Shown here one piece after another: positions 17,231-24,620 of a DNA stretch of 64,000 bases. The position numbers were made by a program, and so were the translations under genes. Within the stretch, counting starts at the first letter, position 1. Each line of letters begins with the position of its first letter. The notes under the pieces are model-generated. The model had not been told where the DNA came from. It searched no databases and saw only the letters and a program-made list of their open reading frames with translations. The DNA is from Candidatus Falkowbacteria bacterium (GTDB lineage Bacteria > Patescibacteriota > Patescibacteriia > UBA11705 > JABHMO01): NCBI GenBank assembly GCA_018674305.1, contig JABHAL010000015.1:30683-94682 (forward strand), given 5' to 3'.

Positions 17231-17295
17231 AATTAGAATAAATTTTCAAAAAACAATATCATAGAATTATAGCATTAATATTCAGTTTTGTCAAT

Positions 17296-17349: not shown

Positions 17350-18660
17350 TTAGGTCATGGCAAGTATAGCAATAAGAATCACAAAAAGGATTGCGCTAAT
17401 AATAACTATATCTAATAATACTGATACAAAAGCTCTCCATCCACCTTTGCTGGCAAAGATTGCTGGAACTCCAAAAATCAAGAATAAATAAATCAGAAAC
17501 AAGACAATTACACCAATTAGAATCATTGACTCAAAACCGTCGGGCAAAACTTTATGCCAACGAATATCATCTAGCCAGTTTAATGCATAAGTTAAAGCAA
17601 ATAAACACAGAGAGGCAACAAAAGCCCAGGTTAAATATTGTCCATTAAAAAGATTTATTTGTGAATCATGATCTTTGGGTTTGTGTGTTGGTTCTACATG
17701 TGGCTTATCCATTTTTGGTTTTCTGTCACTGAAGTGTCGGTTCAAGAAATACAGTCCGACAATTAACAATATTAAAATTATAATTGTAGTTAAAATGCGA
17801 CCAAGGTTCAGTCTTAGCTTAGACGTTGCATATGTACCAGGAACATTAAAAGTTTCGTCTGGTGCTAGATCCGTTCCTTTCTTGTTAATTGTACCAGAGT
17901 AACCGATTCTTCTTGAAGCTTCATCAAGACTTTTGTTTGAAAAGCTGGTTGCTCCCAATCCAGCTGATTCGCCAACTGTCATCATATCAGTATCATAATT
18001 TACAGTTGTCTTTTGTCCACGCATTTCTAAATCTGCATCAGTGCTAATTGCCACGTTTAATTCCTTGATTCTGACGGGAGCTTTTAGATTATTAAAATTG
18101 AACTTAAATAAACCTCCCCACTTCTCTTCAACATAACTCTTGGAATAATATGATAGAACAACAGCTCCTTGTTTGTCTGGTGCAACCGTTTGTTCAAGGT
18201 TAATCAAAATGGAATCACCATTAGTTTGTGATTTTAGTTTAAAATATTTGGCACTGCCTTTTGAATTACCGTAATAATAGCGATTGTTTTGGTAATAGTT
18301 TGGGTCTGAATATTTTTTACAATCGTTAGCTTTAGTTTCTTTATTGTAAACTGATTCATCGCAAACTTGGGGTAGAACTTGTTGATAAGTCATTAGTTCA
18401 TATAGCTGATCGTCTGAGGAAAATTTCAACTCTGATAAATCATTGTCAGAAAAGTTTGTAAAAGCAATTCTGGCAGTGATAACTGCTTCACCATTACCAC
18501 GCATAGTTACAGAATAGTTGTGCTTTTGACCAAAAATGATACCACCAACAGAACTGTCAGGTGATGGTGGAACTGGCATAATTTCAATTTCTTGGGCTAA
18601 AGTCAAAGCAGGACACAAAAGTAGGAGCAAAATAAAACTTGAAACAAAAAGTTTTTTCAT
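17350..18660 (-). CDS. Exported protein with N-terminal signal peptide and C-terminal TM anchors (hypothetical)
   Basis: MKKLFVSSFILLLLLCPALTLAQE signal peptide; 3 C-terminal hydrophobic helices. Confidence 0.4.
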   Translation of the reverse strand: MKKLFVSSFILLLLLCPALTLAQEIEIMPVPPSPDSSVGGIIFGQKHNYSVTMRGNGEAVITARIAFTNFSDNDLSELKFSSDDQLYELMTYQQVLPQVCDESVYNKETKANDCKKYSDPNYYQNNRYYYGNSKGSAKYFKLKSQTNGDSILINLEQTVAPDKQGAVVLSYYSKSYVEEKWGGLFKFNFNNLKAPVRIKELNVAISTDADLEMRGQKTTVNYDTDMMTVGESAGLGATSFSNKSLDEASRRIGYSGTINKKGTDLAPDETFNVPGTYATSKLRLNLGRILTTIIILILLIVGLYFLNRHFSDRKPKMDKPHVEPTHKPKDHDSQINLFNGQYLTWAFVASLCLFALTYALNWLDDIRWHKVLPDGFESMILIGVIVLFLIYLFLIFGVPAIFASKGGWRAFVSVLLDIVIISAILFVILIAILAMT

Positions 18661-19109
18661 ACATTGGATTTAATGATTTTTTGACAGTTATTTAAAATAT
18701 TTTTGCCGGACATAGTATCATCATACTCCTTCCCTATTTTTTCAAATATGACTTGATGGTCTGGTGAAATTAAAATCACCGCTGGTTTACTGGTGATATG
18801 ATCTTTGAATTTGGTTTTTAGTTTAAAATAATCAATCACAGAAAATTCAGTGTCTGATAAAATTGGAAACTTTAATCTGAGAAAAGTTTTAAGTAAACTA
18901 GATTTAAACTTAGTGTCCGGTGAAATTGCTAGAGGTTTTATATTCGAGGAAGTAAACTCATTAATTAAGCTGTTAACTTCAACTAATTGCCTTTTGCACA
19001 AATTACACCAGGCTCCACGAAAAAAGATTAATAGTAAATAATCTGATCCCTGGTATTGTTCAAAATTTAATATTGAATCGTCGTTGTTTTGTAGTTCTAA
19101 GTTTTGCAT
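18657..19109 (-). CDS. Thioredoxin-fold redoxin (AhpC/TSA-like thiol-disulfide oxidoreductase)
   Basis: GAWCNLC CxxC motif in a thioredoxin-like context; 4-nt overlap with the downstream exported protein gene. Confidence 0.55.
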   Translation of the reverse strand: MQNLELQNNDDSILNFEQYQGSDYLLLIFFRGAWCNLCKRQLVEVNSLINEFTSSNIKPLAISPDTKFKSSLLKTFLRLKFPILSDTEFSVIDYFKLKTKFKDHITSKPAVILISPDHQVIFEKIGKEYDDTMSGKNILNNCQKIIKSNV

Positions 19110-19290
19110 TATAAAAGGTGTGAGATTATAGTTGTAAGTTAATAGTTTAAGTATAGCAGTAAATTCAGAACTTTTGTAGCCTTGACAATGAGGGATTATT
19201 GTGATAAGTTTATTTTACTAGTTTAAGGTAATGAAATTGAATAGTAATTGATTCGCTGAAATTGAATTTTAACAAGATGGAGGGATTACA

Positions 19291-19536
19291 ATGTCAAACT
19301 TTACAGTTGTTTTAAAGCAAGACGAACCTGGTTTTTTTGTGGATGTACCTGCTTTGCCAGGATGTAATACTCAAGGCCGAAATGAAGAAGATGCAGTAGT
19401 TCAGGCTAAAGATGCAATCGTTGCCTGGTGTGATCATGCAACAGAACTAGGAGTTAAGATCCCAACTAATGTCCAGGTTAACCTTGCCAATTATAACGGC
19501 AATGTTTCACTGCATGTTGTGAGTGTGGATGTATGA
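19291..19536 (+). CDS. hicB: HicB-family antitoxin-like protein (UPF0150 N-terminal domain only)
   Basis: FVDVPALPGC...EEDAVVQAKDAI matches the HicB_N fold signature; GGAGGG ribosome-binding site; no hicA partner found. Confidence 0.6.
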   Translation: MSNFTVVLKQDEPGFFVDVPALPGCNTQGRNEEDAVVQAKDAIVAWCDHATELGVKIPTNVQVNLANYNGNVSLHVVSVDV

Positions 19537-19542
19537 AATCCA

Positions 19543-19575
19543 AAAGCCCGAGAACAAAGTTCCGGGCTTTTATAT
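19543..19575 (+). terminator. Rho-independent terminator after hicB
   Basis: aagcccg...cgggctt hairpin followed by ttttat. Confidence 0.6.
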
Positions 19576-19602
19576 TTGGCAGTTGTTTTTTGGTACTTGT
19601 AA

Positions 19603-19758
19603 CTTTTAACAACAATCATCCCAGTCAACCACACCATCAAGTTCTTTAAGTTTTTCTTCGTATTGCTTTAAGCAGTCTTCACAGCAAAAATTAACATCAT
19701 GTTTAGCGATGATTTTTTCATCTTCAATTTGTTTCTCGCAAGTAATGCATTTCTTCAT
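19603..19758 (-). CDS. Small Cys-rich protein (51 aa, MKKCITCEKQIEDEKIIAKHDVNFCCEDCLKQYEEKLKELDGVVDWDDCC), TRASH/MYM-like zinc-binding candidate; not in the ORF track
   Basis: Own translation of the minus strand; C-x2-C-x16-CC-x2-C spacing. Confidence 0.3.
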
Positions 19759-19826
19759 ATTGAATTGCAATAATATTCAATTTAATTATATCCTAGAATA
19801 GGTAAGAATGCAATTCATTCTCTCTG

Positions 19827-19855
19827 TTGACAAAGTTATACTTGTGTGCTATAAT
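19827..19855 (+). promoter_or_regulatory. Consensus sigma70 promoter (TTGACA-17 nt-TATAAT)
   Basis: ttgaca at 19827-19832, 17-nt spacer, tataat at 19850-19855. Confidence 0.7.
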
Positions 19856-19889
19856 ATTCTAATGATATTTGAGGTATATTTGAAGCGAC

Positions 19890-20099
19890 ATGGAGGTCAC
19901 TGTGAAAAAGGGAACAAAGTATATGCTGCAGTATGCTATGAATTTGAACATTCCTGCTGGTGGATCAACTGGCAACATGGAGATGAAGTATTTTCGAACT
20001 TTTATTGGCCTGTGTTGGTTTGTCATTCGTGACAAAGTTGCCTGCGCGGCGCTTAAGGCTGGTAGAGTCCGAGTCATCACAATCAAAAAAGACAAGTGA
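19890..20099 (+). CDS. Small ORF (69 aa) inside the promoter-to-terminator unit. An alternative 56-aa leaderless Cys/His-rich ORF runs 19862-20032; the unit could instead encode an sRNA
   Basis: GGAGGT ribosome-binding site before ATG/GTG; the stop abuts the strong terminator; no homology recognised. Confidence 0.25.
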   Translation: MEVTVKKGTKYMLQYAMNLNIPAGGSTGNMEMKYFRTFIGLCWFVIRDKVACAALKAGRVRVITIKKDK

Positions 20100-20106
20100 A
20101 AAACAA

Positions 20107-20141
20107 AGAGACGCGAGTTATCACACTCGCGTCTCTTTCTA
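20107..20141. terminator. Strong bidirectional terminator (12-bp stem agagacgcgagt/actcgcgtctct)
   Basis: Perfect 12-bp GC-rich inverted repeat; T-run on the minus side, serving gene 20150-20941 and the plus-strand mini-unit. Confidence 0.8.
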
Positions 20142-20149
20142 TATTAAAT

Positions 20150-20941
20150 CTATTTCTTCTTCTTTGTTACAGTTTTCTTTTTTGGAGCTGTTTTTTTAGT
20201 AGCTGCTTTCTTTGCTGCCGGTTTCTTTTTTGGAGCAGCCTTCTTGGTAGCTACTTTCTTTGCAGTAGGTTTCTTTTTTGGAGTAGCCTTCTTTTTTGTT
20301 ACTGCCTTTTTCTTTACTACAGCTTTCTTTGGAGCTGGTTTTGAAGGTGTTGCCTTTACTTCTGAAGACGGAGGAGAATAAGGTTTTGGTTTTTGTTCTT
20401 GGTAAGAAGATCGTCCACCTTGGTCACCACGTGAAGGTCTTGAGTTTTGTCCTTGATAAGAAGATCGTCCGCCTCGTCCACCACGTGAAGAGCTTGAATT
20501 TCGCCCTTGATATGAAGATCGGCCACCTTGTCCGTATGCGGGTCTTGAGTTTTGTCCATGATAAGATGATCGTCCGCCGTGACTTTGTGGGCGTGAGTAA
20601 GATTGGCTTTTGATCCCAAGTGCCTTTAGAATTTGGTCTAATTTAGCATTCAGAGTTTCAAAATCAGGTCTTGATCCACCTGCTCCACCTGAACCGCCAC
20701 TTGAGTCGCTTCTTTTTATACCACCAAAACATTTATTACAATAAATTGGCTTATCACCGCTTGGGTTGAAAGGCACTTCACAGCGCTGTCCACAAGCAGC
20801 ACAAACCGCCTTGAATAAAGGACGGTCAGAGTTTTTTCTATTTTCTTGGAAACATTTATCACAGAAAACCGGTTTGTCTCCAGAGGGTGTAAACGGAAGT
20901 TCACAACTATTTCCGCATTTATCACATTTTGCATTAAACAT
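20150..20941 (-). CDS. Nucleic-acid-binding protein: two CxxC...CxxC zinc ribbons, an RGG/SY-QG-N-SRP low-complexity repeat region and a Lys/Ala-rich histone-H1-like tail
   Basis: CDKCGNSCELPFTPSGDKPVFCDKCF and CAACGQRCEVPFNPSGDKPIYCNKCF; GGRSSYQGQNSRP repeats; C-terminal AKKAATKK repeats. Confidence 0.6.
   Translation of the reverse strand: MFNAKCDKCGNSCELPFTPSGDKPVFCDKCFQENRKNSDRPLFKAVCAACGQRCEVPFNPSGDKPIYCNKCFGGIKRSDSSGGSGGAGGSRPDFETLNAKLDQILKALGIKSQSYSRPQSHGGRSSYHGQNSRPAYGQGGRSSYQGRNSSSSRGGRGGRSSYQGQNSRPSRGDQGGRSSYQEQKPKPYSPPSSEVKATPSKPAPKKAVVKKKAVTKKKATPKKKPTAKKVATKKAAPKKKPAAKKAATKKTAPKKKTVTKKKK
20390..20620. repeat. Imperfect tandem DNA repeats (~39-nt unit, about 5 copies) encoding the GGRSSYQGxNSRP region
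   Basis: Recurrent ...gatcgtccgcc...gtccttgataagaagatcgtcc... units visible in the sequence. Confidence 0.55.
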
Positions 20942-20962
20942 AAAAATAAAATATTCTTATAG

Positions 20963-21163
20963 TTACTTAATTATTTGTTGTACTCGACCTACTTCACCTG
21001 TTGTTAAGCGGACTTTTATACCTCGGTGATGTTCAGCTGAGGAGGTAAGTATATCCTTTATCACCCCAGATGTCAATGGCCCGCCTTTTTGGTCTTGTTT
21101 GAGGACAATAGCTACCTCAAGACCTGGGTGAAGATTGCTTCGTAAGGTGCCTGGATTTTCCAT
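20963..21163 (-). CDS. YwbE-family small protein (DUF2196-like)
   Basis: GVIKDILTSSAEHHRGIKVRLTTGEVGRV signature. Confidence 0.55.
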   Translation of the reverse strand: MENPGTLRSNLHPGLEVAIVLKQDQKGGPLTSGVIKDILTSSAEHHRGIKVRLTTGEVGRVQQIIK

Positions 21164-21165
21164 AT

Positions 21166-21732
21166 TTAATTGAAAAATTTAAAAACTTGATTAACCTTTT
21201 TGTTAATCTTGTTTTTTTGTTTTTGGTTAAATTCAAAACAGTTGTCAATCATATAGCCTTTTGTTTTTAATCCACAAAAACCTAGAGTATTTTTTGTAAC
21301 GGTTTTTAAGGCTCGATTTTTAGCAATTAGCTTTTCATAAATTGCTGGACCACCAGTGGTTACAATAACGGCCGCTTTTCCTTTTAGTAATCCAACCGGT
21401 CTTTTTCCAATATAATGAAAAGCAAAATCCTTAGTTAAAACTTTATCAAAAAAACCTTTCAGGATTGCAGGACTACTATTCCACCAATTGGGAAATATCA
21501 CAATGATTTTTTTGTTTTCTTTAATTAATTTTTGCCATGATTTCACTTGAGCTGAAATTTTTGATTCGGGTCTGGTATAAAGTTCGTTCGATTGTAAAAT
21601 AGGATCAAAATCTTCTTCATACAGATCTAGTAGCTTATAGTCGTTTTTTTTATTCTTTAATAGTTGTTCTATTTTTTCTAAAATGAAACCATTATGACCT
21701 TTTTTATCTGGATGCGCGTAAATAATTAACAT
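21166..21732 (-). CDS. Flavodoxin-like fold NAD(P)H-dependent oxidoreductase (NQO/azoreductase-like)
   Basis: MLIIYAHPDKKGHNG...IVIFPNWWNSSPAILKGFFDKV Flavodoxin_2 pattern. Confidence 0.6.
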   Translation of the reverse strand: MLIIYAHPDKKGHNGFILEKIEQLLKNKKNDYKLLDLYEEDFDPILQSNELYTRPESKISAQVKSWQKLIKENKKIIVIFPNWWNSSPAILKGFFDKVLTKDFAFHYIGKRPVGLLKGKAAVIVTTGGPAIYEKLIAKNRALKTVTKNTLGFCGLKTKGYMIDNCFEFNQKQKNKINKKVNQVFKFFN

Positions 21733-21809
21733 TTGCTCTGTTTGTTATTAAAAAGATGCTAGCTTACACTAACATCTTCTATTTTACCTTAAATTTTGTG
21801 TAAAATCAA

Positions 21810-23375
21810 CTAGTTGGTGTCATTAAGTTGTTTTTTTGGTGCAACTTTGACCTTTGGTTTTATTTTAATTAGACCAGGCCCTTGCTGTACGGGTTGAACT
21901 TTAATATCAACTTTAGGAAAAACACTACTGCTGCCGTCATTGGTGAACTCTTTGTTTGGTGAATCACTAATTGTGCTACCACCTTGATCATAGGGTTCAG
22001 TTTTCGGTGCATTAATTTCTTTGGGATTGAACTTAGCTTCAACAGTAGGCTTTACTTCCTTTTTTTGGGGATCCCACTTAGTTTCGTCATAAGCTGGTAG
22101 CATTTGTTTTTCTTTTCTGATTTCGTGAACCTTTCGTTTCTGATTATCTTTCATAAGATCCTTTTTCTCGTTGATTTTTCTCAATAATTCATCTGCAGCA
22201 ACATCACCGCTTTCAGCCTTGGTAGTTAATTCTAATTTCTTGGCTTTAAGTATTTTAGCTTTTTCGATTCTGCGTCGGGCATCATTTTTTGCTGTGCTTA
22301 TGGTGGATTTTAGTTTACTGGATAATTCTTTGGCTTTTCCGGCTTGATCAAGAATCTTATGACGTCTTTCTAATAACTTTTCTTTCAACTCATCATTTTT
22401 AGCTTGAACATGGGCCATGTAATTCTTTACTTTGGCAGCACGTTCGCGAACATCAATTTTTTCCATTTTTTCTCCAAGTTTTCTGTGTCTTTCGGCAATA
22501 GCTATATCAAAAGCCTTTTTGTTATCTCCAAATTTATCTTTTAGTTTATCAATAAATTCTAAATCGTTTAAAGGTTTAAGATTACTACCTTGTTTTGCTT
22601 CAAATATTTTGCGTAAACGTTCAGCTACTTTTTCTGGATCGTTATTGTCAACCTTTTCCATAACTTCTTTCATGTTTTCCAAATGTCTTTCGCGGGTGGC
22701 TTTAATTTTTTCATAAGCTTTGTTTGTCACTTGGTTTTCCAGTTTTTCAAGAATTTTATGGTGCAAGTACTGTTGGTGGGTAAATTTATCTTGAAGGTTT
22801 TTCAATTTTTCCGGATCTATATCGAAACTTGTGATTTTGTTTTTAATGTAAGTTACATATTCTTGAGCTTTCTCAATGTCTTTAACTGCTTTAGCTTTTA
22901 ATTTTTCATTATCACTATTTTCAATAACGTATTTGGCTCGAGCAACTTTTTGATTAGCGTAGGTAAATCGCTTTTCTGCAGCTTTAGCGGCATCAAAAGT
23001 TGTAGCTAAAGAAATAGCTTGTTTGGTATTTTGCCACCAACGACGCCAGCGGGAAGTTGTTTGAACATTTGCGTTAACCTCTAAGTCCTCAACTGTTACT
23101 TCATTATCAATTATCGCTTCTTCAGAAACTATTTCTTCTATTACTAAATCATCATATTCTGCTGGTAAAACAATTTCTTCAGTTGGTAAAGCACCGCCTT
23201 CAGTTGATCCGCTTATATTTTCAGCCTCCATAACTTCAATTGTTGTGTCATGATTGACATCCTCTGCTTCGCCTTGAATATCGCCGATCTGTATAAATGC
23301 GCTTTGTGCTAAAGTTGGAGAAGCTATACAAAGCATTACCAAAATGATTAAAATTCGACTAAGATTAGATAACAT
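21810..23375 (-). CDS. Secreted K/E-rich coiled-coil protein (hypothetical)
   Basis: Signal peptide (ILVMLCIASPTLAQS) followed by a long charged helical region. Confidence 0.45.
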   Translation of the reverse strand: MLSNLSRILIILVMLCIASPTLAQSAFIQIGDIQGEAEDVNHDTTIEVMEAENISGSTEGGALPTEEIVLPAEYDDLVIEEIVSEEAIIDNEVTVEDLEVNANVQTTSRWRRWWQNTKQAISLATTFDAAKAAEKRFTYANQKVARAKYVIENSDNEKLKAKAVKDIEKAQEYVTYIKNKITSFDIDPEKLKNLQDKFTHQQYLHHKILEKLENQVTNKAYEKIKATRERHLENMKEVMEKVDNNDPEKVAERLRKIFEAKQGSNLKPLNDLEFIDKLKDKFGDNKKAFDIAIAERHRKLGEKMEKIDVRERAAKVKNYMAHVQAKNDELKEKLLERRHKILDQAGKAKELSSKLKSTISTAKNDARRRIEKAKILKAKKLELTTKAESGDVAADELLRKINEKKDLMKDNQKRKVHEIRKEKQMLPAYDETKWDPQKKEVKPTVEAKFNPKEINAPKTEPYDQGGSTISDSPNKEFTNDGSSSVFPKVDIKVQPVQQGPGLIKIKPKVKVAPKKQLNDTN

Positions 23376-23432
23376 AGATTCTTATTGTTATTAATTATCT
23401 TCGTAATTCATTATACCATGAATTACGAAAAT

Positions 23433-23461
23433 CAAAAGAGAGCAGTTACTGCTCTCTTTTG
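23433..23461. terminator. Rho-independent terminator (agagagcag-tta-ctgctctct + T-run)
   Basis: Perfect 9-bp stem; T-runs on both sides. Confidence 0.7.
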
Positions 23462-23480
23462 TATAGAATTTCTTTAAGTT

Positions 23481-24620
23481 CTATCTACTTGCTCCGGTAT
23501 AAGCGATTGCTCTCATAATTGACCAGTGATGTGAAGTGCTTGGTACATAACCATATACACCTTTGAAGCTGCCAATGGCGGCTCTTTCACTATCAAGGTT
23601 TCTAACAACATTTCTGATGTTGTAGCCTATATAGTACAAGGCCCATTCATCGTAAATGTTATTAAAGTCTGGCAAACGTTTGTAAACTTTTGTGAAGTCT
23701 ACAAGAGCAGTTTGTTCAGCGCTGATCTGCCTTTGAGTTGGCTTATGGCTGGTCAATATTAGATCAATATCATACCAGTCTGTTGTTGATGCCGGTACTC
23801 GACCATATATGTCGAAGTAGTCACCAACTACACCTTTTCGGTCACGGACAGACATACCAGTAGAGTTTGTTGTACCGTAAGCAATAAAGTTAACACTTTG
23901 CCATTCCCCATCAGTTGCTGGCACATCTCCAGTTAATGCAATAAAGTGTTCCAATCCCTCAGCCTCATTATCTGCATTGATAACAGCAGCCTGAGTTGGT
24001 ACTACCTCTGAAACAGTTTCGGTTGTTAATTCAACTCCAGTATCTGTAGTCACAGTTTCAGTCGTTGTAGTAGTTGTAGTAGTACCTCCATTACCTCCAC
24101 CATTGCCACCACCACCTGCAGTGATGGTAAATGTGCTGTTTGTTGGAGTTGGGGTGTAACCGTCACCACTATGAGTTCTAACCGCTACCACGCCGGCTGT
24201 TGCTGCGCCTGATCCTGTTGTATAGCCAAATGTCCAGGTAGTACCTGATCCACTCATTGCAGTGTAAGCTTGAGTCGCTACTGCATCTTCCGTGATGTAA
24301 ATGTCAGGTGTTCCTGAAACCGCAGAGCCGAATGTTGCGGTAATTGTAACTGCGGTATTTGGAGTGATTGTACAACTGCTAGAACATGAAGCGTATGTGA
24401 TTGCCAATGTCGGAGTTTCCTCTGTCCAATAACCATAACCATATCCATATTCAGAAGCTACACCATAACCATAACCATAGCCAGAGTCTTGTGTCGCAAA
24501 GGTTGTATAAACTGTACTCAAGTCAAAAACTGTTACTAAAGCTACTATCATAACTAAAGCAACAATTACCTTTGCTATTGTTTTCTCACTACTAAAAAAT
24601 TTTCCTATTTTTTTTTCCAT
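23481..24620 (-). CDS. Membrane-anchored surface protein with GYGYGY repeats and poly-Thr/Gly linker (hypothetical)
   Basis: N-terminal TM helix; SGYGYGYGVASEYGYGYGY; GGGGNGGGNGGTTTTTTTTETVTTD. Confidence 0.45.
   Translation of the reverse strand: MEKKIGKFFSSEKTIAKVIVALVMIVALVTVFDLSTVYTTFATQDSGYGYGYGVASEYGYGYGYWTEETPTLAITYASCSSSCTITPNTAVTITATFGSAVSGTPDIYITEDAVATQAYTAMSGSGTTWTFGYTTGSGAATAGVVAVRTHSGDGYTPTPTNSTFTITAGGGGNGGGNGGTTTTTTTTETVTTDTGVELTTETVSEVVPTQAAVINADNEAEGLEHFIALTGDVPATDGEWQSVNFIAYGTTNSTGMSVRDRKGVVGDYFDIYGRVPASTTDWYDIDLILTSHKPTQRQISAEQTALVDFTKVYKRLPDFNNIYDEWALYYIGYNIRNVVRNLDSERAAIGSFKGVYGYVPSTSHHWSIMRAIAYTGASR

Follow-up and report, generated by a model that had tools for sequence, protein, structure and literature searches.

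A probable single-gene operon for a small basic protein in Candidatus Falkowbacteria

A short plus-strand transcription unit of Candidatus Falkowbacteria, located in the 64,000-nt stretch of DNA that was analysed here (the window), is very probably a single-gene operon for a small protein of 65 aa, and the family of this protein occurs in Patescibacteria and in phage-like gene arrays. Judged by sequence comparison, the open reading frame (ORF) at 19902-20099 is coding, conserved and under purifying selection. The candidate can, therefore, be struck from the possible new classes of RNA, since it is a plain small-protein gene. The gene is already present in public annotation as a hypothetical protein. 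What is new here is its membership in a family that is missing from curated libraries and that typically forms an autonomous unit of promoter, gene and terminator.

According to the mechanism that we propose, transcription would start about 7 nt past a consensus extended -10 sigma70 promoter. A leader of 40 nt would bring a GGAGG sequence 5 nt ahead of the GTG at 19902, from which 65 codons would be read. The transcript would end 5 nt past the stop codon at a bidirectional terminator, which the unit would have in common with a convergent zinc-finger gene. The features are listed in Table 1. All dN/dS values given below stem from a single genome pair, the window and a related, syntenic Falkowbacteria genome (ENA ERZ24794647, designated L016).

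Table 1. Features of the transcription unit, with positions in the window
Feature	Position	Strand	Basis or remark
-35 hexamer TTGACA	19827-19832	+	12/12 consensus score together with the -10 element; same in L016
Extended -10 element TGcTATAAT	19847-19855	+	Sequence and consensus scoring; same in L016
Predicted 5' UTR, 40 nt	19862-19901	+	Transcription start inferred from its distance to the -10 element
Shine-Dalgarno sequence GGAGG	19892-19896	+	5 nt upstream of GTG 19902
Coding sequence, 65-aa basic protein	19902-20099	+	GTG start, TGA stop at 20097-20099; homologues, dN/dS and NCBI annotation
Bidirectional intrinsic terminator	20105-20138	both	14-bp stem, 6-nt loop, T-rich tail on each strand

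Promoter, terminator and reading frame

The initial annotation had described a perfect sigma70 promoter and a terminator, with no plus-strand gene further downstream, and sequence and scans confirmed this. The TATAAT hexamer (19850-19855), preceded by the TG of the extended element (19847-19848), is separated from TTGACA by a spacer of 17 nt, and the sigma70 promoter reached the full score of 12/12. The exact sequence TTGACA-N17-TATAAT is present in two copies in the 64-kb window, compared to 0.05 copies expected by chance. The second copy is found on the minus strand (17294-17266). The unit promoter, which had been regarded as the best in the window, is thus joint best with this second copy and not the sole best, despite its perfect match to the consensus. 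The minus-strand copy (17266-17294) also reads TTGACA-17-TGcTATAAT and precedes a helicase-like gene of 969 aa, whose TTG start (17230) lies 36 nt downstream; the motif TGCTATAAT is common to both consensus promoters of the window. Inverted repeats of operator type were not found in the promoter region of the unit. Transcription would start near position 19862. We infer high expression of the 65-aa protein gene, and the small protein itself is probably also highly expressed.

The hairpin that begins 5 nt after the TGA stop codon has 7 G-C pairs in its stem. It was the most stable terminator-like hairpin in the whole-window scan, with -22.7 kcal/mol on the plus strand and -24.7 kcal/mol on the minus strand. 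The earlier description as the strongest terminator was correct in this respect, but the stem measured 14 bp and not 12 bp. The terminator is common to the unit and to the convergent gene at 20150-20941 on the minus strand, and no plus-strand gene follows 3' of the unit. In L016, one pair of the stem is changed from G-C to A-T by alteration of both sides, so that pairing is kept, and the scan of this genome called a plus-strand terminator at the corresponding hairpin.

Two ORFs had been named within the unit, a leaderless Cys/His-rich ORF of 56 aa (19862-20032) and an ORF of 69 aa with a GGAGG ribosome-binding site (19890-20099), and both are present in the sequence. We compared the frame of the second ORF to L016 and found 16 substitutions, of which 12 are at third codon positions. 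With 11 synonymous and 5 non-synonymous changes, dN/dS was 0.106. Both other plus-strand frames contain stops; one of them had an omega of 3.1, and for the other, with 16 non-synonymous and no synonymous changes, omega is undefined. Frames besides the sense ORF showed an omega of at least 2 or stop codons, with the exception of one antisense frame. The promoter hexamers and the terminator hairpin are also conserved, and the alternative ORFs are not. One ORF alone is, therefore, conserved and under purifying selection, an outcome that the initial annotation had itself named as refuting its reading of an unclear product. The leader of L016 carries an indel of 4 nt and has lost ATG 19862. Since both changes are tolerated, we read the leader region as non-coding.

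The homologues and a dN/dS of 0.11 support the view that the ORF described with 69 aa is coding, but the start had to be revised. An in-frame ATG at 19890 gives a product of 69 aa and was chosen by the gene callers of other assemblies; the index of the public assembly collection lists exactly this product (19890-20099, plus strand) in 58 blocks. The nearest purine-rich stretch is located 15 nt upstream of this ATG (19 nt in L016). The region 19888-19910, which includes both GGAGG and GTG 19902, shows no changes in L016. The nearest homologues have the N-termini MKKNAKYALMY and MSAQTKWMLVY, which match MKKGTKY as read from GTG 19902. Because the spacing to GGAGG and the N-termini of the homologues fit, GTG 19902 with a product of 65 aa is the more likely start when compared to ATG 19890, and the NCBI annotation agrees. 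MBT5338617.1 is a protein of 65 aa, annotated by NCBI/GenBank as 'hypothetical protein HN858_00055 [Candidatus Falkowbacteria bacterium]'. Its sequence is that of the window ORF read from GTG 19902, and it belongs to the 90% cluster of the ORF (P0103). The record describes the same protein as analysed here, but gives neither family nor function, promoter or terminator. The 65-aa protein includes the peptide YMLQYAMNLNIPAGGSTGNMEMK.

A family of small basic proteins

A word-indexed homology search with the 69-aa ORF returned only its own cluster, and the family surfaced by exhaustive phmmer search. Among 1.84 billion cluster representatives, phmmer found 18 matches at E<=1e-3 with lengths of 49-101 aa; the best match (E 1.6e-12) showed 53% identity over 58 residues. 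A profile search resulted in 11 matches, some of which were additional to those of phmmer. The family comprises in total about 23 diverged relatives with 31-54% identity. The GC content of the genomes that harbor members ranges from 32% to 69%, and conservation is, therefore, at the level of the protein and not of the nucleotide sequence. The family pattern is K-Y-x-L-x-Y-A-K-D-L-x-x-P-P-G, followed by F, by W-F, and by A-R-A-A-x-x-A-G-R. Nearly invariant columns of the alignment are Y11, P18, F31, A47, A50 and R55.

The pI was 8.9-11.6 in 22 of the 23 family members, and the only exception is a truncated sequence. The window protein is soluble and strongly basic, with a pI of about 10.2 and a net charge of about +9.5. 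The number of residues per family member is 0-2 for Cys and 0-3 for His, and neither of the two is found among the invariant or nearly invariant columns. The proposal of a 'toxin-like or metal-binding' product with a link to hicB found no support, as Cys and His are few and none is conserved, and the homologue loci of other lineages have no hicB neighbour. A metal-binding Cys/His protein likewise found no support, since the ligands are not conserved in the family and the Cys/His-rich frame is broken in L016.

Searches of the window protein and 20 family members with the HMMs of Pfam-A, NCBIfam, PHROGs and PADLOC gave isolated matches in single members only (E>=0.04). The family profile had no match among PDB sequences, and a literature search for small proteins of Falkowbacteria yielded nothing relevant. 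We concluded that this is a small family without a described function, which curated libraries lack. The claim that neither ORF matches a known family, thus, holds for the curated libraries, but about 23 homologues exist.

AlphaFold2 predicted the same topology in both of two runs, one with 12 and the other with 23 aligned sequences, at moderate confidence (pLDDT 74-76). The order of the elements is beta (6-12), beta (26-31), alpha (34-43), alpha (45-52) and beta (56-61). A structural search with this beta-beta-alpha-alpha-beta model gave no significant neighbour. As a tentative suggestion, the 65-aa protein may be non-enzymatic and work by binding to nucleic acid or to protein.

Loci of the relatives and possible mobility

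Self-contained units were found at the loci L008/L013, L011/L014, L012, L025/L026 and L016. These have a -35 box with the sequence TTGACA or TTGACG at a distance of 50-100 nt upstream, a Shine-Dalgarno sequence, and a GC hairpin followed by a T-run downstream. At the sequence level, an autonomous unit, that is, a single gene with its own promoter and intrinsic terminator, is present in the window, in L016 and in four further lineages. Names in the phosphoglycerate mutase cluster of L011 identify this locus as Patescibacteria.

At L010 and L021, the homologue is located within a tight array of genes on the same strand. Neighbours with PHROG matches were seen at L010, L012 and L021, and the link to phages is drawn from the neighbours on these three metagenomic contigs. 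L021 (8921-11275) belongs to the 77.8-kb JGI contig Ga0187782_10000027, in which the homologue is part of a long same-strand array with small unknown genes. It is followed by genes for an AAA/MoxR-like ATPase (phrog_1297) and for a DUF2201 VWA/metallopeptidase-like protein (phrog_1314). We regard this contig as a probable phage or other mobile element. A narrower alignment of the family found no member in the viral contigs of IMG/VR and two loci in JGI metagenomes, and tblastn against GenBank phages gave nothing significant. No conserved partner gene was found across the homologue loci. L010, L021 and L023 each have an upstream gene that overlaps the homologue; the three encoded proteins are not related to one another and gave no Pfam matches.

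Since relatives are found in phage-like arrays and also as autonomous units of Patescibacteria, the gene may be accessory and may stem from a mobile element. Phage 'morons' are autonomous promoter-gene-terminator units in prophages. The window gene resembles them in being single and small, in having a predicted strong promoter and intrinsic terminator of its own, and in having relatives in phage-like arrays. It differs from them in its neighbourhood: AhpC, the HicB-like protein, the zinc-finger protein, YwbE and the oxidoreductase look chromosomal, and the examined genes showed no prophage features. In a more far-reaching reading, which we consider doubtful, the small basic proteins would form a new family and might have a new fold; the family would move as a promoter-gene-terminator cassette between chromosomes of Patescibacteria and their phages, and the protein would be a phage-derived binder of host nucleic acid or protein that serves, for instance, in the takeover of the host, in immunity or in anti-defence. 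Genomes of Patescibacteria are small and poorly understood, and a small protein that is also found in phage-like contexts is a reasonable, non-urgent target.

Alternative products and neighbouring genes

Identity to L016 is 85-94% over the entire unit, promoter and terminator included, compared to a background of about 70-80%. The dS value of the 65-aa gene was 0.32, as opposed to 1.46 for the adjacent AhpC and TRASH genes. The low dS could be due to an extra constraint at the RNA level or to recent recombination. A dual-function RNA, serving as mRNA for the 65-aa protein and also as regulatory RNA, would explain the low synonymous divergence, and the UTR, the promoter and the terminator are well conserved too. 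However, similarly low dS values were found for DUF2196 (0.40) and for a part of the 436-aa gene (0.42), and the segment 23420-23920 is another such case. As several other segments of the region match it, the low dS is not specific to the 65-aa gene. We read it as mosaic divergence, caused by recombination or by codon constraint linked to expression, and see in it no specific sign of a function at the RNA level. Recombination or codon bias is the simpler explanation, and a conserved structure found no support, so that a dual-function RNA appears improbable. If the gene did move as a cassette, the low synonymous divergence would reflect a recent horizontal exchange of this cassette.

Mosaic divergence from L016 extends over the region 17600-24500. 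In addition to the 65-aa gene, DUF2196 (20966-21163) and the segment 18200-18500 showed dS values of 0.3-0.4, and 23420-23920 is 90-98% identical between the two genomes. The values were 1.0-2.4 for AhpC, the TRASH-like gene, the whole 436-aa gene and the 521-aa gene. The pattern points either to recombination between lineages or to some genes having strongly constrained codons. The gene order in L016 (AhpC, HicB-like, 50-aa TRASH-like, 65-aa gene, zf_Tbcl_2 protein, DUF2196) is that of the window. A Flavodoxin_2 / NAD(P)H-dependent oxidoreductase gene (21166-21732, minus strand) is missing from the otherwise syntenic L016. The alignment has a gap there at about 21124-21823, and DUF2196 directly precedes a 542-aa gene in that genome.

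The initial annotation had also considered a novel sRNA. A strong promoter and a terminator bracket the short unit, and the identity to L016 is high over its whole length with low dS, as would also be the case for a non-coding sRNA of about 280 nt with fortuitous ORFs. The Rfam scan proposed at that time was performed, and the unit matched no known RNA family. With gathering thresholds, only two tRNAs were found in the whole window. A permissive Rfam scan of 19700-20250 gave matches at chance level, mostly centred on the terminator hairpin, the best with 19.9 bits against a threshold of 70. ARAGORN did not find a tmRNA. The 284-nt transcript folded no better than shuffled sequences (MFE -76.7, mean of the shuffles -70.0, z = -1.5). 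A 42-nt plus-strand segment with the terminator hairpin alone reached -22.7 kcal/mol in ViennaRNA. Because this energy exceeds the gap between MFE and shuffles, we attributed the z-score mostly to the terminator. Single-sequence folds and two-genome consensus folds revealed no structure past the terminator, where the only compensatory pair within a helix of substantial size is also located. The substitutions cluster at third codon positions of one frame, and protein homologues with 31-54% identity in genomes of 32%-69% GC are inexplicable without translation. A non-coding sRNA is, therefore, very unlikely.

We also considered whether the 65-aa protein could be a non-canonical toxin partner of the adjacent orphan HicB-like antitoxin. 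In the window as well as in L016, a HicB_lk_antitox gene without hicA is located upstream of its gene, at a distance of about 370 bp. In the window, the antitoxin gene (19291-19536, plus strand) encodes 81 aa, and 19110-19290 contains no plus-strand ORF of at least 30 aa, so that hicA is lacking. The 65-aa protein has the size of HicA toxins (PF07927; about 60-70 aa) and a hicB-like neighbour in the window genome. It differs from them by the lack of a HicA Pfam match, by its predicted beta-beta-alpha-alpha-beta topology, which is not the HicA fold, and by a hicB linkage that is not conserved: the loci of other lineages (L008, L010-L014, L023-L025) have no HicB neighbour. In addition, the two genes are separated by two terminators and by a gene of the opposite strand. 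Between the window and L016, nucleotide identity is 61% for hicB and 92% for the 65-aa gene, so that the two do not co-evolve. Such a partnership is very unlikely.

That the product is the leaderless, Cys/His-rich and possibly metal-binding peptide of 56 aa (19862-20032) is hardly conceivable. Its AUG coincides with the predicted start of transcription, and the window sequence leaves the ORF open, but in L016 the ATG is replaced by GTG, an insertion of 4 nt follows 13 nt on and the frame has an internal stop, with 0 synonymous and 16 non-synonymous changes, and no Pfam match was found. The chance that an antisense ORF of 78 aa (20095-19859, minus strand) is the true gene is negligible: it is open in both genomes with an omega of 0.31, but such a lowering is expected from wobble positions in common with a constrained sense frame (0.106), it has a TTG start, follows immediately on the terminator that ends the convergent gene, and has a weak match as its sole promoter-like sequence, it has no Pfam match, and the homologues came from the sense translation.

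The 65-aa gene is flanked by two minus-strand genes. The convergent gene (20150-20941) encodes a 263-aa protein of unusual build, with two CxxC-x17-CxxC treble-clef fingers (zf_Tbcl_2). Four GGRSSYQGQNSRP-like repeats come next, and then a tail rich in Lys, Ala and Pro with a resemblance to histone H1. The regions of the repeats and of the tail diverge rapidly and show indels when compared to L016. As a search anchor, the 263-aa protein gave no close relatives, and its low-complexity tail swamped the contig scan and the homology search. On the other side, the gene at 19606-19770 encodes a Cys-rich protein of 50-54 aa with a weak match to the TRASH domain (E 2e-4). It is divergent from the studied unit and convergent with the HicB_lk_antitox gene, with a hairpin at about 19545-19570 between the two.
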